Source: Deltaproteobacteria bacterium
GTDB lineage: Bacteria; Myxococcota_A; UBA9042; CAIXZC01
Length of the DNA stretch: 64,000 nt
Assembly (NCBI GenBank): GCA_016875215.1
Contig: VGRX01000002.1
Coordinates: forward strand, 5,805-69,804
Direction of reading: 5' to 3'
Made by a program: the position numbers and the translations under genes. Below the pieces are notes generated by a model. That model saw only the letters and a list, made by a program, of their open reading frames with translations, was not told the origin of the DNA and searched no databases. The stretch's first letter is position 1; each line of letters begins with the position of its first letter. Below are positions 1,907 through 56,846 of this stretch, one piece after another.

Positions 1907-3016
1907 CGTGCAGCAGCAGAACTTGAACCCAGACTGGCTGCACGAGTCGCTGGTGGAGGGCCCGTCGATGCGGAAGGCCTTGTGGCACGACATCCCGTGG
2001 GCCGAGCAGGCGCTCGAGCAGGAGCTGCCTCCGACCACGAGGCAGGAGCTGGACGAGAACTTGTTCCCCCCCCAATAGAAATCGCCGCTGACCCCCAGGT
2101 CGCCTTTCACTTCGAGGGTGCGGGACGGGCTCGTGGTCGCGATGCCGACCTTGCTGCCCGAGTCGTAGACGATGGAATCCTCGATCGTGGTGGAGTTGTA
2201 GAACCGCGCCAGCTTCTTGGCCGTGCCATCTCCGCCGATACCGCCGCCGGCCGCGTCGCAGACCAGGGTTCCGCTCGTATTGACGCCGGTCACGACCTTT
2301 CCGGACGAGCACTTCTGGTTGCTCAACGCGAAATCCCCGCCGTCGTAGCTGCCGCCTGCCAGCACACACTGCACGTGCCCGTCCGGGCTGACTCCGGAGA
2401 CCACGTTGTTCGGCGGACAGGTCTGTGCGCTGAGAGCAAAGTCGTTCCCCGTGTACGTGCCTGCCGGAGCGCAGAGCGGGACTCCTTCGGGAGAGAAGCC
2501 GGTGACCACCTGGCCGACGTTGCAGCCCTGGCCCCCTTTGACCACCCCCTGGAGCTGGTCCGCCGGGTGCGTGTGCTCCGGCACCTCCCCGCAGTACTGG
2601 GCGTACGCGGAGAACGGCACCGTCCCGAGGAACGTGCGGGCCATCTCCGGGTCGTCCTCCACCTTGACGGCCAGCCAGACGTTTCCGTGCTCCCGGAACA
2701 GCGAGAGATCCAGGGGCGAGGACGTGCCCAGGTAGGCCACGAACAACCCCCGGTCCGTCAGGAGGGTCTGCGTCTCGGACCAGAGCGGCTTGCCCTTGAC
2801 CGGAGCATCGTAGAGGGTGAACGTCATCTGGACATTGCCTTCGATCGGCTCCCCCTTCTTGTCCGAGAGCACCCCCTGGAGCGGCAGGAAAGCCGGCGAC
2901 TCGGCCCTGGCCACGGAAGGGAAGACGAACAGCAACACGCCGGCGAGGATCAGCGGCCGAGCGGACGACCGTCCTGCTCGTATCGTTTCGCCCCCACCTG
3001 CCGCACCGGCGACCAT
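1901..3016 (-). CDS. Secreted repeat protein of unknown function (signal peptide + ~45-aa repeats VVTG..SP.G...C...G.Y.G.DFALS.Q.C)
   Basis: The long ORF 1901..3472 has an N-terminal region overlapping DNA direct repeats. The internal Met at codon 153 precedes a classic signal peptide (RPLILAGVLLFVFPSVARA), so I place the start there. The mature part is an internally repetitive Cys-containing domain. Confidence 0.55.
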   Translation of the reverse strand: MVAGAAGGGETIRAGRSSARPLILAGVLLFVFPSVARAESPAFLPLQGVLSDKKGEPIEGNVQMTFTLYDAPVKGKPLWSETQTLLTDRGLFVAYLGTSSPLDLSLFREHGNVWLAVKVEDDPEMARTFLGTVPFSAYAQYCGEVPEHTHPADQLQGVVKGGQGCNVGQVVTGFSPEGVPLCAPAGTYTGNDFALSAQTCPPNNVVSGVSPDGHVQCVLAGGSYDGGDFALSNQKCSSGKVVTGVNTSGTLVCDAAGGGIGGDGTAKKLARFYNSTTIEDSIVYDSGSKVGIATTSPSRTLEVKGDLGVSGDFYWGGNKFSSSSCLVVGGSSCSSACSAHGMSCHKAFRIDGPSTSDSCSQSGFKFCCCTN

Positions 3017-3024
3017 CCGCCTCT

Positions 3025-3100
3025 GCACAAGGCTATGGCGGGACTTCGCCGACCATGCGCCTTCGCGCAAGGCCACGGCGGGACTTCGTCGACCATCGAC
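3025..3100. promoter_or_regulatory. Two ~36-bp imperfect direct repeats (3025-3060, 3065-3100; gcacaaggctatggcgggacttcgccgaccatgcgc vs gcgcaaggccacggcgggacttcgtcgaccatcgac) immediately upstream of the 1901..3016 gene
   Basis: The period is 40 bp, which is not a multiple of 3, so the repeat exists at DNA level rather than protein level. It sits 9-85 nt upstream of the proposed start, suggesting tandem operator-like sites. Confidence 0.3.
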
Positions 3101-3893: not shown

Positions 3894-5780
3894 CTACGCC
3901 TTGACGCGGCGGGCGAACGCCAGGGCCGCCAGGGCGAGAAGCATCAGGAACGCGGCAGCGGCATTGCCGGTGCCGGTGGTGGTGCAGCCGCCGGAATCGC
4001 TGCTGGTCGGCTTGGTGGTTTCTTCAGCAACGGTGGCGTCCTCGACCACGTCTTCGGCCGGGAGCGCCACGCAGGCGCCTTCGGAGCACTCGGTGCCCGC
4101 TTCGCACGTGCCGCAAACGCCGCCGCAGCCGTCGTCGCCGCAGGTCTTGCCGTCGCAGGCCGGGGTGCAGGCGCAGGCGCCCTCGACGCAGGTCTGGGGG
4201 GCCTGGCACTCGCCGCAGGTCCCGCCGCAGCCGTCGTCGCCGCAGGTCTTGCCGGTGCAATCGGGGGTGCACTCGCAGAGGCCGTCGGTGTTGCACACCT
4301 TGCCGGCCGGGCACTCGCCGCAGCTTCCGCCGCAGGTATCACCGCCGCACTCCTTGCCATCGCACTGGGGTGCGCACTCGCACTTGCCGGCGTTGCAGGC
4401 GAAGCCGCCCTGGCAGATACCGCACTCGCCGCCGCAGCCGTCATCGCCGCACTCGAGGCCGGTGCACTTGGGCACGCACTCGCACTTGCCGGCCTTGCAG
4501 GCTGTGCCTTCCGCACACTCGCCGCAGGAGCCGCCGCAGCCGTCGTCACCGCACTCGCTGCCGGTGCAGTCCGGCGTGCAGACGACGCACTGGCCTTCCT
4601 TGCAGATCAGGCCGGCGTCGCAGGTACCGCACGAACCGTTGCAGCCATCGCTCCCGCAGACCTTGCCTTCACAGCTGGGCGTGCAGGGACCGATGCTCTC
4701 GACGCAGGCGTTGTTCTCGCACTTCTTGCCGGGGCCGCAGGGGCAATCCTCGGGGTTCGCACCGCAGTTCTCTCCCCCCTCGCACAGCTTGTTGCCTGCG
4801 ACGGCCGCCTGGCAGCCACCGCACTGGTCGAGGCACGCGCCGACGCAAATCTTGTCCCACTCCGTCGCGCAGCAGAAGTCGTCGGCACCGCACACGCAGG
4901 CCTCGCACTGGCAGCCGCCGCAGCCCGGCGTACCGGCAGACGGCTCACAGCCGACGCCCTTCTGGCATACGCCACCGGCGCACACGCCTTCCGCGCACTC
5001 GCCGCAGGTTCCGCCACAGCCATCATCGCCGCACTCCTTGCCGCCGCAGAACCCGATGCAGCACTTGCCCGCCTTGCAGACGCCGCCATCCGGGCAGCCG
5101 CAGTCGGCCGGGCAGTTCGAGCAACTCTCCATTTCCTCGGCCTTGCAGTTGCCGTCACCGCAGTTGGCCGGCTTGAAGCAGCCGCCGCAGTCGTTGATGC
5201 ATTCGCCGACGCAGATGTTGTCCCAGCCGGACTCGCAGCAGAACGGATCCAGCGCGCACACGCACTCTTCGCACGCGCAGCCTCCACACGTCGGGGTCTC
5301 GGCGATCTCACAGCCGGGGCCCTGGTGGCAGAGACCGTCCACGCACTGGCCCGCACACTCGCCGCAGGTGCCGCCGCAACCGTCATCGCCGCACATCTTG
5401 CCCGCACAGTCGGGGGTGCACACCTCGCACTTGCCGTCCTTGCAGATCTGCCCCGCAGCACAGGGCGGATCGCACTTGACGCAATCCTTTGCGTTCTTTC
5501 CGGACGGATCCTCTCCGCCGTCGGTGCCGCAATCATAGAACTGTCCCTGCCAGCCGCACGAGGGGTTCACTCCTGCGCAGTCGATGCAGAAGAGCTTGCC
5601 CTGGTCGCACCACACGACGCGGCCGAGCCCATCGCAACAACCTTCGTACGTGATGTCGCCGCAACTGGCGCCGCTGGGCTCCTGCATGCCCTTGCAGTCG
5701 TCGGGGTATTCGGCCATCGCCGGCATCGCCAGCAACAGGCCCGCCAAGATCACCACTGCCGAAAAGATCTTCACCTTCAT
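3894..5780 (-). CDS. Secreted Cys-rich repeat protein (about 14 modules of C-x-P-x-C-x-G-K-x-CGDDGCGGxCGxC) with C-terminal MYXO-CTERM sorting signal
   Basis: N-terminal signal peptide MKVKIFSAVVILAGLLLAMPAMA. The modules repeat regularly. The C-terminus is GGCTTTGTGNAAAAFLMLLALAALAFARRVKA, i.e. GGC-x-x-x-G + hydrophobic helix + RR. Confidence 0.75.
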   Translation of the reverse strand: MKVKIFSAVVILAGLLLAMPAMAEYPDDCKGMQEPSGASCGDITYEGCCDGLGRVVWCDQGKLFCIDCAGVNPSCGWQGQFYDCGTDGGEDPSGKNAKDCVKCDPPCAAGQICKDGKCEVCTPDCAGKMCGDDGCGGTCGECAGQCVDGLCHQGPGCEIAETPTCGGCACEECVCALDPFCCESGWDNICVGECINDCGGCFKPANCGDGNCKAEEMESCSNCPADCGCPDGGVCKAGKCCIGFCGGKECGDDGCGGTCGECAEGVCAGGVCQKGVGCEPSAGTPGCGGCQCEACVCGADDFCCATEWDKICVGACLDQCGGCQAAVAGNKLCEGGENCGANPEDCPCGPGKKCENNACVESIGPCTPSCEGKVCGSDGCNGSCGTCDAGLICKEGQCVVCTPDCTGSECGDDGCGGSCGECAEGTACKAGKCECVPKCTGLECGDDGCGGECGICQGGFACNAGKCECAPQCDGKECGGDTCGGSCGECPAGKVCNTDGLCECTPDCTGKTCGDDGCGGTCGECQAPQTCVEGACACTPACDGKTCGDDGCGGVCGTCEAGTECSEGACVALPAEDVVEDATVAEETTKPTSSDSGGCTTTGTGNAAAAFLMLLALAALAFARRVKA

Positions 5781-34292: not shown

Positions 34293-35390
34293 ATGATGAG
34301 AGTCGCACTTGTTGTGGTCGTGGCGCTGGCTGCCATGGCCTGCTCGAACAGTGGGAAGTCACCTGCGGACATCTCTGCAACGGAGACCCCGGGCGGCGAC
34401 GTGAGATTGCCGACCGGCGACGCTCAGCCGCAAGTCGATCTCGTGACGGAAGAGACGCTCGACGTCCCGAGCGGTCCCGAGATCGTCCTTCCTCCGGGCT
34501 ACCTGGAGTTCTGCCTGTCCGACGCAGACTGTGCGACCTGGGATCTCAAGTGCTTCTTCTCGAAGCCGGCCGACCCGGATGCCATCTGCTCGATCGCATG
34601 CACATCGAGCACAGAGTGTCCCGAGCCGATGGTGTGCAAGCGAAAGGGGGAGTTCAAGGCGTGCATGCTCGCCAGCTACTGCGACGGCTGCGACAAGGAT
34701 TCCCAGTGCGGTGAGAACGGGAAATGCGTCGCGGACGAGGATGGCCAGAAGTTCTGCACCCATACGTGCAAGAAGGACGATGCCGAATCGTGCGGCGGGG
34801 CCAACTTCTGCAAGAAGGTCGGACTGGGGCTGGAGGACTACTACTGCTACCCCATGTTCGGCACATGCAAGGGGGATGGAACCCTCTGCACCCCCTGCCA
34901 GGAAGATGGTGATTGTCTCAAAGGGCACGAGTGCCACGAGAACTCCACGACCCACGAGATGTACTGCGCCAAGGTCTGCCAGACCGACATCGACTGCCCC
35001 GAGAAGGGATACGGCTGCTACGAGGTTTCCGGCGAAGAGCTCCCGCTGTGCACCATGGAAGTGAACGGGAGCCCGGTCGAAACGTGCTACCAGGGGAACA
35101 AGGGCTTCTGTGAGCCGTGCATGCGGGATTATGAATGTCAAAGCGGGATATGTTACAATTACCCGGTTGCAAAAAAATATTTTTGCAGCTTTCCTTGTGA
35201 CAAGACGAAGTACGCAAGCGGCTGTCCGTCCGGGCTCTTCTGTGCTCCAAACCACGGAGAGGGTGCGGCCGTGAACCCCGACGTCTGCATTCCCCCGACC
35301 GCGTTCGGCTGCCAGGGATTCCTGAACTGCGTGGGTGTCGATTGTCCCAAGGGGGAGAAATGCATCGATGGGTTCTGCCAACCCAAGTGA
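34293..35390 (+). CDS. Cys-rich lipoprotein of unknown function
   Basis: MMRVALVVVVALAAMACS lipobox, strong GGGGAGGGG RBS, more than 40 Cys. Confidence 0.6.
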   Translation: MMRVALVVVVALAAMACSNSGKSPADISATETPGGDVRLPTGDAQPQVDLVTEETLDVPSGPEIVLPPGYLEFCLSDADCATWDLKCFFSKPADPDAICSIACTSSTECPEPMVCKRKGEFKACMLASYCDGCDKDSQCGENGKCVADEDGQKFCTHTCKKDDAESCGGANFCKKVGLGLEDYYCYPMFGTCKGDGTLCTPCQEDGDCLKGHECHENSTTHEMYCAKVCQTDIDCPEKGYGCYEVSGEELPLCTMEVNGSPVETCYQGNKGFCEPCMRDYECQSGICYNYPVAKKYFCSFPCDKTKYASGCPSGLFCAPNHGEGAAVNPDVCIPPTAFGCQGFLNCVGVDCPKGEKCIDGFCQPK

Positions 35391-35448
35391 GGGGTCGGGG
35401 GGAGAAATGCATCGATGGGTTCTGCCAACCAAAGTGAGGGGTCGGGGG
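35355..35448 (+). repeat. Perfect-but-one 47-bp tandem duplication covering the last 12 codons + stop of the 34293..35390 gene and 11 nt beyond
   Basis: gagaaatgcatcgatgggttctgccaacc(c/a)aagtgaggggtcggggg occurs twice head-to-tail (35355-35401, 35402-35448). It is followed by atcgtagtcgca x2 at 35490-35513. Confidence 0.7.
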
Positions 35449-35536
35449 GTATCGAGCCCAACCTGGGCCTTTGCAACAGGCGGCTCGGCATCGTAGTCGC
35501 AATCGTAGTCGCAATCGTCCTTCCCGGAGGTAGTGG

Positions 35537-36055
35537 ATGCGAGCAGTCAGCCTGGTAGCGTTCGTGGTCGTTCTGGCGGTGATTGGGACCACCTCGGCCT
35601 CGGTGGTTCGGCCGTTCACGTTGCAGGAGCTCTACTCGACGGCCCAGCTCGTCGTGGTGGGTGAGGTGACCGGCCAGACGACCTTCTGGAACGAGGCCCA
35701 CGACACGATCTACACGGAGTACCTGGTGAAGCCCGAGCGGGTGGTCAAAGGCGAGGCGCCGGCCGAGGTGCGGCTCCGGCTGATGGGGGGAAGCCTGGAC
35801 GGCAAGACGCTCACCGTCCCGGGGAATGCCCCGGTCGAGGAGGGAGAGAGGGTCCTGCTCGCCCTGCGGGACCAGGGGTCCTTCCAGACCCTGGTCGGAA
35901 TGTCCCAGGGCAAGTGGAGCTTGCGCAGTGTGGACGGGAAGGATCGGGCATGGCGAGGGCCGAGGCTGCAGGCCTTCGAGCCGCTCCGTGACGGCGAGGT
36001 GCTGCTCGACGATCTGCTGGACGACATGCAGCGGAACCCGGGGAGGATGCCATGA
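35537..36055 (+). CDS. Secreted protein of unknown function, translationally coupled (ATGA) to the downstream metalloprotease
   Basis: Signal peptide MRAVSLVAFVVVLAVIGTTSASV. GGAGG RBS 5 nt upstream. The stop overlaps the start of the 36052 gene. Confidence 0.5.
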   Translation: MRAVSLVAFVVVLAVIGTTSASVVRPFTLQELYSTAQLVVVGEVTGQTTFWNEAHDTIYTEYLVKPERVVKGEAPAEVRLRLMGGSLDGKTLTVPGNAPVEEGERVLLALRDQGSFQTLVGMSQGKWSLRSVDGKDRAWRGPRLQAFEPLRDGEVLLDDLLDDMQRNPGRMP

Positions 36056-38196
36056 AGACGCGTCCTCTCCCCGGGCACCTGGCAGCAGCGCTCACGCTGT
36101 TCTCGCTCCTCTCGACGGGCTCTCCGGCCGTGGCGTTCACCATCAACTCCGACAACGGCGAGAAGATCACCTGGAAGCAGAACACCATCGCCTGGTACCT
36201 CCATCCCAGCGGAAGCCAGGACATGCCGTTCGAGGAATTCAAGGGAGCCATCCAGGCCGCGTTCAACACCTGGGACAACCTCCCCTGCTTCAGCAAGAGC
36301 TTCAGCTTCGGCGGAACCAAGAGCTCGGATCCCCAGGACGGGATCTACGTCATGGTCAAGGAGAGCAACTGGGATCCCACGGTCGGGGACGCAGCGGCCT
36401 ACTCGCAGAACTGGACCGACTGGAGCGGCAACATCTCGCACAACGTCATCGTGTTCAACGGCGTGGACCTGACCTGGACCACGACCGAGGCCATGGACTA
36501 CTTCTCGGAGAAGACGGACGTCCAGGGGGTCGGCACCCACGAGCTGGGGCACAGCATCGGCCTCGACCACTCCCGCTGGCGCGCAGCCACCATGTTCTTC
36601 TCGGGCAGCAGTGCGGAGCTGCGCACCCTCGACCAGGACGACAAGGACGGCGTCTGCTATCTCTACTCCGCTTTCACCAGCGGCAAGCCGTGCGACTCCT
36701 GCACGTCGAACACGAACTGCAGCGGCGCCCCGTGTCTCAACGTCGGAGGGCTCGGCTTCTGTGGAAAGAACTGCTCGTCCGACGCCAACTGCCCCGAGAC
36801 CTTCACCTGCGAGCAGCTCAACAACGGCAGCTACTCGTGCTATCCCTTCAACAACAACTGTGCGCAGCAGGGGGCCAACATCCCCATGGGCCAGTATTGC
36901 TACGGCCACGAGACGTGCAAGAGCGGGCTCGTCTGCCTGGTGCTCCCCGACACGGCCTACTGCTCGAAGGAGTGCACCTCCAATGCTCAGTGCGGGAGTC
37001 TGAAGTGCGTATCCGGGCTCTGCATGCAGGGTGGGAACACGCCGCTGGGCGGCTCGTGCCAGATGCACCCCGACTGCGAGAGCGGCCTGTGCCTCGGCAT
37101 CTCCGAGAACGAGGGCGTCTGCACGTCGCAGTGCAAGGACACGGTCAACTGCCCGAACGGGTTCCTGTGCGCCGGCGGGTATTGCATGAAGGCGGGGGAC
37201 GGCAAGTACGGGACCGCGTGCACCAAGGACATCGACTGCCAGACCGGCCAGTGCCTCTCCATTGGCGGGCTGGACAAGATCTGCTCGAAGAGCTGCACCA
37301 CAAAGGGCGACTGCCCAGGGTCCAACCCGTGCACGTTCTCGGTGTGCATCCCTCCCGGAAGCGGGCTGTTCGGAGCGACCTGCGCGAAGCACACCGACTG
37401 CGCCAGCGGCTTCTGCGCCGGCATGAGCATGAAGCAGTGCAGCATCGCCTGCAAGACCGATGCCGACTGCCCGGCCGGGGCCGGCTGCGTCAGCGGCGGC
37501 TACTGCGTGAAGAAGAAGCCGCCGACGGGATCCTGCAATTCCAAGGCGGACTGCAAGCCGGGGGAATTCTGCAGGCAGGCGAGCGCTGACGTGATGGGCA
37601 TGTGCACGCCGGAATGCAACCCGTTCGGCGATACCGGCTGCGCCGACGGCAGCGTATGCCAGTGGGTCTACCAGCCCTTCGAAGACGTGGTGCACGGCGA
37701 GTGCGTCCCGTCCAACGACGGCGGTGACGAGGGGGCCCTGTGCCTCGCTCCCAATCCGCCCTGTATCCAGGACCTGGTCTGCATGAACGTCGGCGGGACC
37801 GGAGCGAAATGCTACCGGGACTGCAACTCCGCCACCGGCTTCGGCTGCGGAGGGGACCACTCCTGCCTCGCGCTGAACCTGTCCTCCGATCCCTACCACG
37901 GCGTCTGCGTCTGCGGTGCCCCCTCCTGCATGGAGGTCCCGGACGAGGATGTGACCGGGCCGGACGATGATGTCACCGAGGAGCCCGAGCCACCGACTCC
38001 CGGCAAAGACGTCAAGGCGGGCAAGGACACGTCCGGCAGTACCCCCAACCCCCCGGTGGGCGTAGAGCCCGGCACTGGCGGAGGTGGCTGCTCGCTTGCT
38101 GGACGCACTCCGACCGGTGCCTCACCGCTTGTCCCCATCCTCCTGCTGGCAGCGGCGCTCTACGCGTTGGTCGTCACCCGTCGGCGCAGGGTGTGA
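36052..38196 (+). CDS. Matrixin/M10-like zinc metalloprotease with Cys-rich repeat stalk and C-terminal MYXO-CTERM
   Basis: HELGHSIGLDH (HExxHxxGxxH) zinc site. Repeated C-x-x-x-x-C-x-S-G-x-C modules. C-terminus GGGCSLAGRTP...ILLLAAALYALVVTRRRRV. Confidence 0.8.
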   Translation: MKTRPLPGHLAAALTLFSLLSTGSPAVAFTINSDNGEKITWKQNTIAWYLHPSGSQDMPFEEFKGAIQAAFNTWDNLPCFSKSFSFGGTKSSDPQDGIYVMVKESNWDPTVGDAAAYSQNWTDWSGNISHNVIVFNGVDLTWTTTEAMDYFSEKTDVQGVGTHELGHSIGLDHSRWRAATMFFSGSSAELRTLDQDDKDGVCYLYSAFTSGKPCDSCTSNTNCSGAPCLNVGGLGFCGKNCSSDANCPETFTCEQLNNGSYSCYPFNNNCAQQGANIPMGQYCYGHETCKSGLVCLVLPDTAYCSKECTSNAQCGSLKCVSGLCMQGGNTPLGGSCQMHPDCESGLCLGISENEGVCTSQCKDTVNCPNGFLCAGGYCMKAGDGKYGTACTKDIDCQTGQCLSIGGLDKICSKSCTTKGDCPGSNPCTFSVCIPPGSGLFGATCAKHTDCASGFCAGMSMKQCSIACKTDADCPAGAGCVSGGYCVKKKPPTGSCNSKADCKPGEFCRQASADVMGMCTPECNPFGDTGCADGSVCQWVYQPFEDVVHGECVPSNDGGDEGALCLAPNPPCIQDLVCMNVGGTGAKCYRDCNSATGFGCGGDHSCLALNLSSDPYHGVCVCGAPSCMEVPDEDVTGPDDDVTEEPEPPTPGKDVKAGKDTSGSTPNPPVGVEPGTGGGGCSLAGRTPTGASPLVPILLLAAALYALVVTRRRRV

Positions 38197-38227
38197 ACCA
38201 CGAGGCAGGGGCGGCGGGGAAGAAGGC

Positions 38228-38270
38228 ATAGGACCTATAGGACAAATAGGACGAATAGGACCAATAGGAC
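38228..38270. repeat. Five tandem 9-bp units carrying ATAGGAC (cATAGGACc tATAGGACa aATAGGACg aATAGGACc aATAGGACc)
   Basis: Seen directly in the sequence. AT-rich, 32 nt downstream of the metalloprotease stop and about 240 nt upstream of plsB. Confidence 0.8.
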
Positions 38271-38430
38271 CCGCCGCTTGGGAGGGCAGAAAGCCGCCAG
38301 GGAGCAGGATCTGCCGGTGCGACGGTGCGTTGCCGGCCTGCGGATCGGAGCGAAGCTCCCCGGCTGTGGTGTCTTGGCCGACCCGTGGGCGCGGGGCGCC
38401 TGCGGCGTGATGGAACAGGCCCTGCCTGGC

Positions 38431-38459
38431 TTGACAAAGCCGGCGCTCTCGGCGATGCT
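38431..38459 (+). promoter_or_regulatory. Weak candidate promoter TTGACA-N17-GATGCT upstream of plsB
   Basis: The -35 is consensus but the -10 is poor. Position is 50-80 nt upstream of the plsB ATG. Confidence 0.2.
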
Positions 38460-38510
38460 GCGGCGGTACGGCTGACCGGGGTTGGAGTGCGACAGAGGGT
38501 CCGATAGAAC

Positions 38511-41135
38511 ATGCATTCGCGGCTGGCGCTCTGGATAAGGTTGTTCCTGTTCCCGCTGTTCGGGCGGGTGGGGATTGCTCCGCACTGGGCGGACCGGGTG
38601 CGTGAGAGCCAGGAGGCCGGGCCGGTCGTGCACGTGCTGGCGGTCGAGGGGCTGCTCGACCTGGCACTGTTCAACTACCTGTTCCTCAAGAACCGTCTGC
38701 GCCTGGCCCGGGTGACGAATTCGAAGCTGTCGAACCTGCTGAGGCCGCTGGTGGTCCTGATCTTCTTCCCCCTCCTGCTGCTGTTCCGGCTGGCAAGCCG
38801 TGGAGATCCGATGGCGGGGATGCAGAAGGCGTTGGCCGCGGGGGAGCCGTGTCTCCTGTTCCTGAAGCGGGCCCGGTTCGTGATGATGCCCGGCGGCAAC
38901 ATCGGGTTGCCGTGGCTGACCGAGCTCGTGCGGCTGCAGCCGACCCTGCCCCGGCCGGTGATGCTGGTTCCCCACGTGTTGTTCTGGACCAAGGGGCCGG
39001 AGAAGTACCGGCGCAACCTGGTCGACCTGTTTCTGGGCGATCCGAATGCTCCGGGGTTGCGCAAGCTGTTGACGTTCGTGGCATTTCCGGGCCGTGCCCA
39101 CGTCTCGTGCGGCGACCCGGTGAACCTGGCCCAGGCCCTGGCGGAGTCCACGCAGGTGGGGGAGGATGCGGCTGCCCGGAAGGTGAGCTGGCTCCTGTTC
39201 CGGGCATTCGACCGGGTCGAGAAGGTGACCCGGGGGCCGATGCTCAAGGATGCTGCGCAGGTCCGCAACGAGATGGTGGTGAATCCCGACTTCGTGGCGG
39301 GGGTGACCGAGGCGGGTCAGGCCATGGGGCTTTCGGAGAAGGCCGCAATGAAGCGGGCAGCCCGCAACATCACCGAGATCGCAGCGGATTTCCGGGAAAG
39401 CGCGATCGAGTTCCTCTCGTTCGTGCTGACCCCCATCTTCAAGCGGGTGTTCTCCGGGTTCGTGGTCGACGTGAAGGCCATGGAGACCATCCGGGAGGCC
39501 TCCGCAGATTCGGCGGTGGTCCTCGTGCCGTGCCACCGAAGCCACATCGACTACCTGGTCATCTCCTACCTGATGTACCTGCTGGGGCTCAACCCGCCGC
39601 ACATCGCGGCCGGCGCCAATCTGACGTTCTTTCCCATGGGGCCGATATTCCGGCGCTCCGGAGCCTTCTTCATCCGCCGCAAGATCGGCGACGACCGCAT
39701 CTACTCTTTCGTCCTGGCGCAGTATGTGCGCAAGCTGCTCAAGGATGGGCACTCCCTGGAGTTCTTCATCGAGGGAGGGCGGAGCCGCACGGGCAAGACC
39801 CTGCCCCCCAAGTTCGGCCTGCTCAACTACGTCGCGGAGGCGGTCACCGGCGAGGCCGTCCGCGACGTGGTCATCATCCCCCTGTCGCTCAGCTACGAGC
39901 GGATCATGGAGGTCGAAGGGTACGCGGAGGAGCTGGCCGGCCGCGAGAAGCGCAAGGAGGATGCCCTGGTCCTGGTCAAGAGCGCCGAGGTGCTGGACAG
40001 CCGCTACGGTCGGCTCTACCTTACCGCAGGGCGGCCGATCCGGATGGCCGAGTTCCTCCAGCAGACGTCGGGCAAGTCCCCGAAGGAGCTTACGGAGGAG
40101 GAGAAGCGCTACCTGGTGAAGAGGCTCGGGTACCTGATCCTGAGCCAGATCAACCGGGCCACCGTGGTGAACCCCACCGGGCTGGTCGCGATGGTGCTGC
40201 TCTCCCACCTGCGGCGGGGGATCTCGTCGGACCGCTTCCAGGAGCATGCCGGGTTCCTGCTCGACTTCGCGATCAAGCGGGGATACCCGATCTCGATCAC
40301 GCTGGACCGGGCGCTCAAGGCCGCGATCCACGACATCGCCCGCAGCCGCGAGAAAGCCAGGGAGGGGGACGACCGCCTCCCCTTCCGGACCATGGGACAG
40401 GCCATCGCACCGGCACTCCAGGAGACCATCGAGATGTTCTCGGCACAGCGCCACCTGCGCATCGAGGAGTTCGCCGGCGGGCCGGTGTATGCGGTGCGAC
40501 CCCGCTCCCGGACCTACCTGAACTACTATCGGAACAACATCATCCACGTGTACCAGCGGGAAGCGCTGGTCGCCATCAGCCTGTATGCCCGCACCTGCCA
40601 GCGGGAGATCCGGGTGGCCGAGGTGGAGGAGGACGTCCGCTTCTTCTCAAGGCTCTTCAAGAAGGAGTTCATCTTCCGGCAGGGGGACTTCGAGCGGGGG
40701 ATCGCCGCAGGGCTCGAAGCGTTCGCCCTCCAGGGTACCGTCATCCTCTCGGGGGACGAGGTCGTCCCGGTCCCGGCCTCGGTCGACCGCCTCGCCATCT
40801 TCCGCAACATGCTGCTGCCCATCGTGGAGAGCTACTGGGTCTGCGCCCGCTACGCCTCCATGGTCCGGTTCCAGGGAGCGATGAAGAGCAAGGACCTGGT
40901 CAAGGCCATCCTCGACCGGGCCCATCGTGACTACCAGGAAGGGGAGATCACGTGCCAGGAATCCCTTTCCACGGTCAGCGTGCTCAATGCACTGGAGCGC
41001 TACCTGGACATGGACCTGCTCATGACCGCCGAATCGGGTGTGGATGCCGGCAAGATCCGGCTGGCCCGGGGCAGCTCGTTCGAGGAGCTGGAGGAGCTGG
41101 CCGAGCGTCTCCGGTTCTTCGTGACCGTCGCCTGA
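38511..41135 (+). CDS. plsB: Glycerol-3-phosphate acyltransferase
   Basis: 874 aa. HxxxxD acyltransferase motif (CHRSHIDYL), FFIRRK, and EGGRSRTGK blocks characteristic of PlsB. Confidence 0.9.
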   Translation: MHSRLALWIRLFLFPLFGRVGIAPHWADRVRESQEAGPVVHVLAVEGLLDLALFNYLFLKNRLRLARVTNSKLSNLLRPLVVLIFFPLLLLFRLASRGDPMAGMQKALAAGEPCLLFLKRARFVMMPGGNIGLPWLTELVRLQPTLPRPVMLVPHVLFWTKGPEKYRRNLVDLFLGDPNAPGLRKLLTFVAFPGRAHVSCGDPVNLAQALAESTQVGEDAAARKVSWLLFRAFDRVEKVTRGPMLKDAAQVRNEMVVNPDFVAGVTEAGQAMGLSEKAAMKRAARNITEIAADFRESAIEFLSFVLTPIFKRVFSGFVVDVKAMETIREASADSAVVLVPCHRSHIDYLVISYLMYLLGLNPPHIAAGANLTFFPMGPIFRRSGAFFIRRKIGDDRIYSFVLAQYVRKLLKDGHSLEFFIEGGRSRTGKTLPPKFGLLNYVAEAVTGEAVRDVVIIPLSLSYERIMEVEGYAEELAGREKRKEDALVLVKSAEVLDSRYGRLYLTAGRPIRMAEFLQQTSGKSPKELTEEEKRYLVKRLGYLILSQINRATVVNPTGLVAMVLLSHLRRGISSDRFQEHAGFLLDFAIKRGYPISITLDRALKAAIHDIARSREKAREGDDRLPFRTMGQAIAPALQETIEMFSAQRHLRIEEFAGGPVYAVRPRSRTYLNYYRNNIIHVYQREALVAISLYARTCQREIRVAEVEEDVRFFSRLFKKEFIFRQGDFERGIAAGLEAFALQGTVILSGDEVVPVPASVDRLAIFRNMLLPIVESYWVCARYASMVRFQGAMKSKDLVKAILDRAHRDYQEGEITCQESLSTVSVLNALERYLDMDLLMTAESGVDAGKIRLARGSSFEELEELAERLRFFVTVA

Positions 41136-54452: not shown

Positions 54453-56846
54453 ATGGACAAGTACTGCCCCACGTGCTCCAGGCGGTATCCGGCGGACCTG
54501 ACCGACTGCCCGCAAGACGGCTCCAACCTCGTCGCATTGCCCGACGACAACCTGACCGGTCAGCTCATCGACCGACGGTACCAGGTCCTCGAACGGATCG
54601 GTCGCGGCGGCATGGGGGTGGTCTACAAGGCCGAGCACGTCATGCTCCGCCGGACCGTGGCGCTCAAGGTGCTGAGACGGGAGATCGTGGAGGACGAGCA
54701 CTCGGTCCGCCGCTTCATGAACGAGGCCAGGACCATCGCGTCGCTGCGCAACCCGCACACCGTGATGCTGTTCGACTTCGGGGCAACTCCGGACGGCGCC
54801 CTCTACTACACGATGGAGTTCCTCACCGGACGCTCCGTCGGCGACCTCATCCGAACCGTTGGGGCCATCCACCACCGCCGGACCGTCGACATCGTGCTGC
54901 AGGTCTGCGACTCGCTCGAGGAGGCCCACGAGAAGGGGATCCTCCACCGGGACATCAAGCCGGACAACATCTTCCTGACGCGGGAGCGGGGGCAGGAGAT
55001 CGCCAAGGTGCTCGACTTCGGCATCGCCAAGCTCCTGGGGACCGACCCGGAAGGGGGAACCCTGACCCGCACCGGAATGGTGTGCGGAACCCCCCAGTAC
55101 CTCAGCCCGGAACAGGTATCGGGAGAGCCCGTCGGCCCTTCGAGCGACCTCTACGCCCTGGGCGTCGTCCTGTACGAGATGCTGTCCGGCACCCCGCCGT
55201 TCATCGCCCCGACTCCGCTCAAAGTCATGCTCCAGCACGTCCAGGATCAGGCCCCCCCCATCCTGGAGCGGAACCCCGGCGTCGAGATTCCGGACTCGCT
55301 GCAGCGTTTCGTGGACCGGGCCCTGGCCAAGAGCCCGAAAGACCGGTTCGGGACCGCAGGGGAATTCCGGGACGCGCTGCGACGCGCAGGGGAGGTTTCC
55401 GGGGTTGGAGGCCGGGAGCAGGGGTTGGAGGCATCGAGCAAGGAGCTTCGCAGTCCGCAGCCCGCAACTGACTCCAGGTTGCAGGTGGCCGCCCGGGAGA
55501 CGCTGGATGCCGAAACGGGTCCCGCAGATGCGTTTGCCGGGACGCTGGATGCCGTGACGACGCCGGTCCGAGGGTCACACAGCCCCGACCACGCGGGAGG
55601 GGCCGTCGGGGCACCGGCACACAGCCCCGACCACGCGGGAGGGGCCGTCGGGGCGCCGCCAGATGCAGTGGGGTCGGCGGAAGTGGCAGCGGCAGATGCG
55701 TTTGCCAGGACGCTGGATGCGGTCCGAACGCCGGTCCGAGGGTCACACAGCCCCGACCACGCGGGAGGGGCCGTCGGGGCGCCGGCACACAGCCCCGACC
55801 ACGCGGGAGGGGCCGTCAGGGCGCCGGCACACAGCCCCGACCACGCGGGAGGGGCCGTCGGGGCAGCGGCAGATGCAGTGGGATCCGCGGGAGTGGCAAC
55901 GGCAGATGCGTTTGCCAGGACGCTGGATGCGGTCCGGACGCCGGTCCGAGGGTCACACAGCCCCGACCACGCGGGAGGGGCCGTCGGGGCACCGGCACAC
56001 AGCCCCGACCACGCGGGAGGGGCCGTCGGGGCGCCGGCACACAGCCCCGACCACGCGGGAGGGGCCGTCGGGGCACCGGCAGTTGCACTGGGGTCGGCCC
56101 GCGGCCGCAGGAAGCTGTGGCCCTGGCTTCTGGCTGTCGGCGCGGCCGCAGCGGTTCTGGCCGGACTCCTCGGTCCCGGATTGTGGAACCCCCAGGGCTC
56201 CTCCCCTTCGACGGAGGAACCCGCTGCCGGAAAGGCCTCCTCCGCTTTGCCCGCGGAGCGCGACGGGACTGAAGCGTCACCACCCTCCCCGAGCTCCGGG
56301 GGGACAGCGGATGTCTCCGGCAAGCCGGAAGACGTCCGTTCGGAATCGCATCGAACCGGCCCCGCCGGGAAGGGAGAGGGGGGGGGCGGGGAGCGCACGC
56401 CGGAATCGACCGGGCGCCCGAGGCGCATGCCGGAGCTGGAGGCACGATCTTCGACGGCGGGGGGTGCTGAGGGGGCGCAGGGGGCCGACGTCAAAGCCGG
56501 GACAGCCACCGGCGAGGCAACGGGTACACCGCCCGGCGCCGGGGGAACACCGGCCCATGCTGCAGCAGATGTCGTTCCAGGCGGTGCCGAGGCCTCGGAT
56601 GCCCTTCCCTCTCCGCCTGGAGAGAAGACTCCGGAAGAGGTTGGACCGGGCAGCACGAACTCAGCCGAGACGAAGCCTGCCGAGGATGCCCTTGGTGAGA
56701 AGAAGCCCGGTGAGAAGAAGCCCGGTGAGAAGAAGCCCGGTGAGAAGAAGCCCGGTGAGAAGAAGCCGGGAGGCAAGAAACCTGGCGGCAAGAAGACCCC
56801 GGGCGACGGGTGGGTCGAGGAGGTGGAGAAGCTCCCCGAGCCGTAG
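54453..56846 (+). CDS. Ser/Thr protein kinase with N-terminal Cys4 zinc ribbon, repetitive linker, TM helix and extracytoplasmic K/P/G/E-rich tail
   Basis: CPTCSRRYPADLTDCPQDG ribbon. Kinase subdomains I-XI (GRGGMGVVYKA, HRDIKPDN, DFG, SPEQ). Repeat region. TM LWPWLLAVGAAAAVLAGLLG. Starts 8 nt after the pyrG stop. Confidence 0.85.
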   Translation: MDKYCPTCSRRYPADLTDCPQDGSNLVALPDDNLTGQLIDRRYQVLERIGRGGMGVVYKAEHVMLRRTVALKVLRREIVEDEHSVRRFMNEARTIASLRNPHTVMLFDFGATPDGALYYTMEFLTGRSVGDLIRTVGAIHHRRTVDIVLQVCDSLEEAHEKGILHRDIKPDNIFLTRERGQEIAKVLDFGIAKLLGTDPEGGTLTRTGMVCGTPQYLSPEQVSGEPVGPSSDLYALGVVLYEMLSGTPPFIAPTPLKVMLQHVQDQAPPILERNPGVEIPDSLQRFVDRALAKSPKDRFGTAGEFRDALRRAGEVSGVGGREQGLEASSKELRSPQPATDSRLQVAARETLDAETGPADAFAGTLDAVTTPVRGSHSPDHAGGAVGAPAHSPDHAGGAVGAPPDAVGSAEVAAADAFARTLDAVRTPVRGSHSPDHAGGAVGAPAHSPDHAGGAVRAPAHSPDHAGGAVGAAADAVGSAGVATADAFARTLDAVRTPVRGSHSPDHAGGAVGAPAHSPDHAGGAVGAPAHSPDHAGGAVGAPAVALGSARGRRKLWPWLLAVGAAAAVLAGLLGPGLWNPQGSSPSTEEPAAGKASSALPAERDGTEASPPSPSSGGTADVSGKPEDVRSESHRTGPAGKGEGGGGERTPESTGRPRRMPELEARSSTAGGAEGAQGADVKAGTATGEATGTPPGAGGTPAHAAADVVPGGAEASDALPSPPGEKTPEEVGPGSTNSAETKPAEDALGEKKPGEKKPGEKKPGEKKPGEKKPGGKKPGGKKTPGDGWVEEVEKLPEP
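55525..56075 (+). repeat. Nested in-frame tandem repeats inside the kinase gene: 42-bp unit (AHSPDHAGGAVGAP) arranged in about 3 higher-order units of ~160 bp (DAFARTLDAV.TPVRGSHSPDHAGGAVGAP...)
   Basis: Near-identical DNA copies of cacagccccgaccacgcgggaggggccgtcggggc(a/g)ccggca and the flanking cagatgcgtttgcc... block are seen directly. Confidence 0.6.
56697..56801 (+). repeat. 15-bp in-frame tandem repeat gagaagaagcccggt x4 plus 3 degenerate units (EKKPG / GKKPG)
   Basis: Seen directly in the sequence at the kinase C-terminus. Confidence 0.6.

Follow-up and report, generated by a model that had tools for sequence, protein, structure and literature searches.

The question raised by this locus is what a strictly periodic array of ATAGGAC heptamers is doing in the spacer between a Peptidase_M10 metalloprotease gene and plsB, and whether it has anything to do with the gene that follows it. 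Five units occur in the 64-kb window (the whole stretch of DNA analyzed, 64,000 nucleotides), and the 2-nt spacers after them, including the trailing one, all differ (Table 1). Tandem Repeats Finder reported the array at 38228-38271 with period 9, 4.9 copies, and a score of 67. All five copies of ATAGGAC found on both strands of the window lie in the array, compared with 2.0 scattered copies in shuffled sequences, and a three-unit pattern allowing up to three mismatches had the array as its sole match in the window and 0.00 matches in 100 shuffles. The array is also the local GC minimum, at 48% versus 70-73% in the flanks, and it is a single arm, with no inverted partner and no palindrome in the 64-kb window. 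The five evenly spaced repeats that an earlier note on this DNA had placed between the metalloprotease and plsB genes are therefore real, and the flanking genes are as that note had them; its consensus, (A/T)ATAGGAC(N), describes four of the units and fails for the first, which is preceded by C. An identical five-unit array is present in an independent Logan assembly (L001, SRR7990334), the one other assembly found for the same species-level sequence, and more distant relatives are without the array. There are no changes in the 35 core positions of the array, while at least 4 substitutions are needed in the 10 spacer positions; by our own calculation, the probability that 4 random changes over 45 positions all fall in spacers is (10/45)^4, approximately 0.002. 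Because the cores are invariant and the substitutions are confined to the spacers, the array is not a decaying product of slippage.

Table 1. Features in and around the spacer between the M10 protease gene and plsB (window coordinates).
Feature	Position	Strand	Remark
ATAGGAC heptamer array, five copies at an exact 9-bp pitch	38228-38270	+	sequence, Tandem Repeats Finder, pattern scan; units start at 38228, 38237, 38246, 38255, and 38264; spacers CT, AA, GA, and CA; CC after the last unit
Peptidase_M10 protein gene	36052-38196		upstream of the array; domain match
PlsB gene	38511-41135	as array	downstream of the array
Lineage-specific part of the M10-plsB spacer, contains the array	38197-38341	.	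unalignable with the 43 nt at the same place in L211
8-bp G+C inverted repeat, left arm GCGGCGGG	38211-38218	+	membership uncertain
8-bp G+C inverted repeat, right arm CCCGCCGC	38270-38277	+	membership uncertain
G-rich, then A-rich preface GGGGAAGAAGGC	38217-38227	+	directly before the first unit; overlaps the left arm
plsB promoter-like block (GCTTGACAA ... GCTCTCGGCGATGCT)	38421-38470		invariant in four relatives
plsB -35 box, TTGACA	38431-38436		conserved in four relatives
plsB -10 box, GATGCT	38454-38459		conserved in four relatives

The array lies on the sense strand; it starts 32 nt 3' of the stop codon of the M10 gene, and 160 nt separate its end from the conserved plsB -35 box downstream. 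The M10 protein is weakly similar to the myxosortase-dependent metalloprotease family and carries at its C terminus a tail resembling a sorting signal, and a deaminase is a further neighbor. The PlsB sequence is identical to that of a protein (NCBI FJ109_00640) from the MAG of an uncultured "Deltaproteobacteria bacterium." No sigma-70-like promoter or intrinsic terminator was called in 38000-38700, the promoter-like block of plsB being missed by the scan because of its weak -10 box. The position of the array in this spacer, upstream of plsB and on the same strand, together with the capacity of tandem repeats in principle to change length, makes it tempting to regard it as a cis-acting regulator of plsB, be it an upstream activator, a nucleoid-protein site, or an iteron-like site, or else as a slipped-strand minisatellite that renders plsB phase-variable; the nucleoid-protein, iteron-like, and minisatellite readings come from the earlier note. 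The orthologous spacers of the nearest relatives, whose PlsB proteins are 85-88% identical to that of the window, argue against both ideas. In L211 (85%), the M10-to-plsB synteny is kept with a spacer of 215 nt versus 314 nt in the window, and that spacer contains no ATAGGAC array; nor do the spacers upstream of plsB in L120/L121 and L213. All four relatives conserve the -35 box, the 17-nt spacer, and the -10 box, plus the 5' UTR. Since the promoter is kept without the array, from which its -35 box is 160 nt away, the array is not a conserved plsB operator, and an upstream activating site or a phase-variation role is improbable. The 9-mers, moreover, are not identical and would be poor substrates for slippage, and the array lies outside both the coding region and the promoter spacer; classification as a contingency locus, that is, a phase-variable simple sequence repeat, was rejected on these grounds (non-identical units, neither coding nor between -35 and -10). 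A role as a replication iteron does not fit either, as no rep gene is adjacent and the class of arrays to which this one belongs has no conserved neighboring gene; the same type of array is found behind unrelated genes in many phyla, as described below. A function dedicated to plsB, already largely refuted by the orthologous spacers, must thus be rated very improbable, and, for this window, a tempting but wrong link to plsB regulation is removed. The array is part of a lineage-specific 145-nt segment and is not a dedicated plsB regulator. This part of the spacer is absent from the relatives, which indicates an insertion or replacement, and homology with L211 restarts at 38342 (GGATCGGAGCGAAGC). 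At the same place upstream of the plsB promoter, L120 (5700-5870) and L121 (1-130) have three copies of a ~52-bp tandem hairpin repeat, and L213 (~2080-2170) has two copies of a ~45-bp one; this spacer is a place where repeats land or expand time and again.

The check suggested earlier, to look for (ATAGGACNN)n in other genomes, gave a strongly positive result. When one genome per species was scanned for TAGGAC-N3-TAGGAC-N3-TAGGAC over 185,579 species, at least 117 loci matched, compared with approximately 17 expected by chance (our own estimate, for 18 fixed bases in 2 x 596 Gb). TAGGAC is preceded by A in 93 of the 117 loci among the matches listed, at a position where the pattern allowed any base. 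The 24 loci among them that have G, T, or C at this position are of the kind typical of coding look-alikes, which are collagen-like Gly-X-Y repeats (GGT-CCT-ATN or GGA-CNN-ATA strands) and a few uniform microsatellites. Collagen-like Gly-Pro-Ile/Thr triplets give the 9-bp TAGGAC periodicity in L013, L020, L046, L077, L096, L109, and most of L128-L210, and such false positives of array searches can mostly be separated by G, not A, before TAGGAC. The non-coding arrays among the matches listed contain 3-11 copies each, with ATAGGAC (470 units), ATGGGAC (93), and ATAAGAC (33) as units and CT (99), GA (94), GG (51), CA (38), TT (33), and others as spacers. Judged from record titles, the carriers belong to Acidobacteriota (Thermoanaerobaculia, Blastocatellia/Pyrinomonadaceae, and others), Planctomycetota (Phycisphaerae, Gemmataceae, and Planctomycetaceae), Lentisphaerota/Victivallales, Kiritimatiellota, Verrucomicrobiota, Bacteroidota (Prevotellaceae and Bacteroidales), Desulfobacterota, Nitrospirota, Hydrogenedentes, and Cloacimonadota; about nine or more phyla carry the arrays, and the GC content of the loci ranges from 39% to 68%. 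Most of the carriers are MAGs, and the scan counts per phylum and per genome are lower bounds rather than a fair sample. The lineage of the window seems poor in arrays, having one in 64 kb and none in ~100 kb of its relatives' loci. A scan of IMG/VR gave 83 matches, which are mostly collagen-like, with ~10 non-coding arrays in high-GC contigs. In one of these viral-labeled contigs, L163, ATAGGAC/ATAAGAC arrays are embedded at three sites in a ~100-nt repeat with conserved flanks (…CCGCAGACTAAAGCGG-array-RTGCGTGGTT…), a composite form absent from the genome loci. In the library searched, no paper prints ATAGGAC as a motif and none contains one of six 16-mers taken from arrays; the ATRGGAC-N2 arrays apparently constitute an undescribed family.

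In many cases, an inverted array, (NN-GTCCYAT)n, comes 0-130 nt downstream of an array, beyond unrelated sequence, and the two form a "foldback"; the reverse order of the arms was also found, in Phycisphaerae. Genes in the comparison loci were called with our own ORF and GC3 heuristics and are not curated, so that 16 clusters appear "inside" putative ORFs; in the loci with GC of at least 58%, the arrays occupy 16 convergent, 19 tandem, and 5 divergent spacers. For those in tandem spacers of these loci, the median distances are 12 nt to the preceding stop and 66 nt to the next start, and in ~14 cases the first TAG of the array is the stop codon of the upstream gene. The arrays of L016, L068, L103, L113, L130, and L051 come right after the T-run of an intrinsic terminator and hence lie outside the main transcript. 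In L086, a MAG of Thermoanaerobaculia, the mreB|mreC spacer (3013-3099) and the one after mreD (4500-4570) are filled by ATAGGAC foldbacks without a loop, which suggests an intra-operon placement like that of intercistronic REPs and shows that the elements occupy housekeeping operons, not mobile islands. The ORFs flanked by arrays include MreB, MreC, a GH3 hydrolase, and a membrane protein. The orthologous convergent spacers of L103 and L113, whose genes are 68-78% identical at the DNA level, both have foldbacks, which share only the cores. In L071 (2762-2938), the 177-nt "loop" between the inverted arrays holds two copies of another hairpin repeat (CCACGGCCACTCTACGCCG-GTAGAGTGGCCG), indicating that different repeat families can be nested.

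Which part of the repeat is read can be judged from the foldbacks. With only one arm ascertained, complementarity of the partner arm is 84-95% over the seven core positions and 52-53% over the two spacer positions, approximately 30% being expected by chance given the spacer composition and the choice of the best register. High complementarity of the cores with low complementarity of the spacers means that the arms share a word, not a selected helix. There are 16 mismatches of the G.U type on the sense strand versus 18 on the antisense strand, the folding energies are equal on both strands, and the strict solo arrays, with 11 in sense and 5 in antisense orientation, show no significant strand bias (p=0.21). 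Core-only matching and the lack of strand asymmetry indicate that the heptamer itself is read, and a protein that acts on duplex DNA would be the simplest reader. If a hairpin in RNA were selected, its pairs would co-vary, and if a single RNA-binding protein were the reader, the two arms would present it with different RNA words. From its sequence features, a conserved 7-bp word in either orientation, a strict 9-bp pitch, and free spacers, the repeat looks like an array of binding sites on duplex DNA. The earlier proposal of a protein-binding-site array, not a dimeric operator or a chance repeat, gains indirect support from the invariant cores and differing spacers seen both in the window and in the family.

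We therefore favor, with about an even chance of being right, the explanation that the array in the window belongs, as a solo copy, to a family of ATRGGAC heptad arrays that is dispersed, spans several phyla, and is read on duplex DNA by a protein. The family has ATRGGAC every 9 bp, mostly just downstream of genes, as single arrays or inverted pairs. A sequence-specific protein would recognize each heptamer in double-stranded DNA and leave the 2-bp spacer unread, and neighboring protomers would align at the 9-bp pitch and spiral around the helix. The copy in the window would have arrived in, or arisen within, the lineage-specific segment 3' of the M10 protease gene; the preface directly before its first unit bears a weak similarity to GGGGAACG, the terminus found before arrays in Thermoanaerobaculia. 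The protein that reads the heptamer might be a host nucleoid or roadblock factor, or it might be the element's own mobilizing protein, and the possible effects of its binding at gene ends are a roadblock or insulation, a topological role, or none beyond that of tolerated selfish DNA. No gene for a cognate binding protein is conserved next to the arrays among 710 flanking ORFs. Since the lineage of the window seems poor in arrays, the cognate protein may not be encoded in it, and the array could be an inert recent insertion. The position at gene ends, as a counterpoint, is also expected of an RNA element in a 3' UTR, and the solo arrays do lean toward sense, though not significantly.

A broader proposition, which we put forward tentatively and consider unlikely, is that ATRGGAC-N2 arrays are an ancient or widely exchanged chromosomal element that has a conserved protein reader and marks the ends of transcription units in many non-model phyla, that is, Acidobacteriota, the PVC group, Bacteroidota, Desulfobacterota, Nitrospirota, and Myxococcota-like bacteria. 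Its role there could be that of a transcriptional roadblock or insulator, or of a topological or nucleoid anchor. If so, the arrays would be a functional counterpart of REP elements built on another principle, with an iterated word in place of a hairpin. If the family holds, one 7-bp word, placed at hundreds of gene ends, would be conserved over genomes ranging from Nitrospira (39% GC) to Thermoanaerobaculia (68% GC), which points to a DNA-binding factor or mobilization system present across much of the uncultured bacterial world, and the array would be a simple, searchable handle for finding that reader. For annotation, the family explains recurrent contig breaks and odd 9-bp repeats that may pass for operators or collagen-like genes.

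The main rival of a family read on duplex DNA, which on the present evidence we hold to be unlikely, is that the arrays are selfish mobile DNA, the multimerized transposase-binding ends of a non-autonomous foldback, REP-like, or MITE-like element, and that the copy in the window is a one-ended relic without host function. Such an element would account for polymorphic presence at orthologous sites, as with the foldback that is present in L064 and missing from its ortholog L058, for the ~14 arrays that supply the upstream stop codon by their first TAG, as expected for insertion at gene ends, and for the many contigs that end in arrays, as they do in multi-copy repeats. The inverted arms, the variable "loop" (8-130 nt), which in places carries other repeats, and the high density in one Thermoanaerobaculia MAG, SMAG_U2052 (~29 clusters in ~120 kb of loci examined, i.e., one every few kb), point in the same direction, and the occurrence of the same core at 39% to 68% GC suggests horizontal spread. 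In SMAG_U2052 itself, however, where the elements end in GGGGAACG...CGTTCCCC, inspection of the termini revealed no target-site duplication, and the copies do not come from a master element, because spacer order, unit number, and loop all differ in every copy. No transposase or other recurrent gene was found within 2.5 kb of the arrays, all-against-all BLAST of the 710 flanking ORFs, restricted to those of at least 90 aa, yielding only ABC-transporter and kinase clusters. BLAST searches of 72,556 PLSDB plasmids and 50,697 INPHARED phage records found only collagen-like, exosporium, and tail-fiber genes, and no arrays.

An RNA-level explanation has a still smaller probability. According to it, the array would be an element in the 3' UTR of the protease mRNA, bound as (AUAGGACNN)n RNA by an RNA-binding protein, with CsrA-type or RRM-type proteins as candidates, or else the foldback hairpins would serve as 3'-end stabilizers or terminators. 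The distance of 32 nt from the stop codon, the sense orientation, the bias of the family toward gene 3' ends, and the 11:5 excess of sense among solo arrays agree with this idea. The bracketing inverted repeat, if single-stranded, is predicted to place the array with its five AUAGGAC (GGA) motifs in a 51-nt loop closed by an 8-10-bp G+C stem (GGCGGCGGG/CCCGCCGCU), and the foldbacks would form very stable hairpins of -30 to -110 kcal/mol. The fold of the window is, however, not better than those of shuffled sequences (z = -1.4), and flanking stems are not enriched around solo arrays elsewhere. Rfam 15 gave no match over the array in the window at E up to 10, and none over the arrays of 18 loci at the gathering score. 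The foldbacks have no asymmetry between G.U and A.C mismatches, their spacers do not co-vary between the arms, and both arms keep the same duplex word, which amounts to two different RNA words. Several arrays, in addition, come after intrinsic terminators, no promoter-like or terminator-like site is near the array in the window, and the arrays occur in Bacteroidales, which to our knowledge lack CsrA. The least probable explanation, close to negligible, is a relic of a collagen-like gene or a hidden small gene, such as the 108-aa ORF at 38084-38410, which runs through the array in a Gly-X-Ile frame. The array can be read as (Gly-X-Ile)5 from GGA-CNN-ATA, or on the minus strand as (Gly/Ser/Arg/Cys)-Pro-Ile from NGT-CCT-ATN, and genuine collagen-like genes do give the same 9-bp pattern, accounting for 14 loci with G before TAGGAC among the matches listed and for most of the viral, plasmid, and phage matches. 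Against this, none of the ORFs running over the array, that at 38084-38410 included, has a Pfam or NCBIfam match, and the latter overlaps the 3' end of the M10 gene; ATA and GGA codons are unusual in 68%-GC coding DNA, and one frame contains TAG. In the family, the spacers GA, GG, TT, and AG break Gly on the minus strand, and the arrays are short, lie between genes, and frequently come with an inverted copy.

Among known systems, the REP/BIME/REPIN elements resemble the arrays most in distribution. REPs occupy convergent and co-directional spacers downstream of ORFs, the same short tags turn up in different phyla, and the superfamilies are GTAG- and CGTC-tagged (PMC3733652). The ATRGGAC arrays likewise are short, extragenic, and high-copy in some genomes, lie mainly downstream of genes between convergent or co-directional ORFs and also within operons, and occur as singletons and as head-to-head or tail-to-tail dimers, with a short tag common to several phyla and presence or absence differing between relatives. 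The REP-like placement applies both to the window, with its array just 3' of a stop codon, and to the family as a whole, with the distribution over convergent, tandem, and divergent spacers given above. A REP is, however, one stem-loop of 20-40 bp whose pairing is conserved, while the ATRGGAC unit is a non-palindromic 7-bp word at a 9-bp pitch, foldback spacers being only 52% complementary versus 84-95% for the cores. The units contain no GTAG, and CGTC arises only incidentally with spacers starting with G; neither a RAYT gene nor a recurrent flanking gene is near the arrays, and the copy in the window is a single arm without a palindrome. Membership in the REP class was rejected for want of a conserved stem-loop unit, a GTAG tag, and a nearby RAYT. 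A MITE was also rejected, considering that there is no target-site duplication at GGGGAACG...CGTTCCCC, that the loops are unrelated between copies, and that the copy in the window is one-armed.

By analogy, the nearest mechanistic precedents for the arrays appear to be the targets of ribbon-helix-helix (RHH) proteins, in which one dimer binds per site. MetJ acts on arrays of 8-bp metboxes. The RHH ParB protein omega of pSM19035 requires at least four contiguous heptad repeats (PMC9499535), and ParG of TP228 cooperatively coats tetramer boxes in parH that are separated by spacers (PMC3130281). The arrays bound by omega, ParG, and MetJ consist of 3-10 contiguous sites of 7-8 bp, direct or inverted, with unread spacers and a pitch under one helical turn, so that the protein spirals around the DNA; the ATRGGAC arrays are comparable in that no fewer than 3-4 short sites adjoin, their core being invariant and their spacer free. 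Unlike RHH sites, which are located in promoters or centromeres beside the gene for the binder, on plasmids or in regulons, ATRGGAC arrays are dispersed at the 3' ends of chromosomal genes and have no plasmid matches, and no cognate RHH gene was found next to the array in the window or recurrently next to the others, among ORFs of at least 90 aa.

Other systems are more remote. Foldback (FB) transposons of eukaryotes and the ends of hAT/CACTA elements, with their subterminal repeats, share with the arrays inverted arms of short tandem repeats in variable number and a variable central segment, but they are eukaryotic and kilobase-scale and come with a transposase and a target-site duplication, neither of which was seen with ATRGGAC arrays. 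The STRR sequences of cyanobacteria are contiguous, identical 7-mers and are lineage-specific; they are similarly short tandem repeats dispersed in the intergenic DNA of a bacterial phylum, whereas the ATRGGAC arrays combine a 7-mer with a variable 2-mer and are common to several phyla. Iterons of plasmids or oriC are also direct repeats of protein-binding sites, but are 17-22 bp long, accompany a rep gene and an AT-rich unwinding element, and are confined to one locus per replicon; this assignment was rejected in view of the neighbors (M10 protease, PlsB, and deaminase), the 9-bp unit, the dispersal, and the lack of plasmid matches. Sponge RNAs of the CsrB/RsmZ type similarly carry several GGA motifs ~9-18 nt apart, but the array in the window is without a promoter, terminator, or Rfam match, the orientation of the motif in arrays is not fixed, and the motifs of foldbacks would be buried in a duplex. 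In form, the heptamer presumably resembles the sites of MmeI-family or BREX PglX enzymes, which we take to be asymmetric, 6-7 bp long, and marked by a penultimate A (e.g., CGRGGAC and TAGGAG); we saw no reason for a genome to array such sites, and this candidate was set aside. Likenesses to the DnaA box (TTGTCCACA), the NarL heptamer, OxyR ATAG repeats, the cold-shock-protein heptamer GTCTTTT, KOPS/Chi, MraZ boxes, DNA uptake sequences, Rho rut sites, and the sarcin-ricin loop AGGACC were considered and rejected as unsupported.

The window contains several other repeats. Just upstream of the M10 protease operon, a 47-bp unit is repeated 2.1 times with 98% identity at 35351-35449, followed at 35490-35518 by a perfect 12-bp repeat of 2.4 copies. 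A tandem array of a 42-bp G+C-rich unit, CACACAGCCCCGACCACGCGGGAGGGGCCGTCGGGGCACCGG, occupies 55524-56098 in ~8-12 copies with higher-order periods of 168/210 bp; the unit contains the inverted repeat CCCCGAC...GTCGGGG, and the array looks like a clustered REP-like hairpin repeat. At 56694-56798, a perfect 15-bp repeat of 4.9 copies, GGTGAGAAGAAGCCC, which continues in degenerate form with a period of 45 bp, probably codes for repeated Gly-Glu-Lys-Lys-Pro peptides. A 102-bp repeat of 2.5 copies at 4312-4568, rich in GCA/GCC/TGC, probably codes for a Cys-rich protein repeat.
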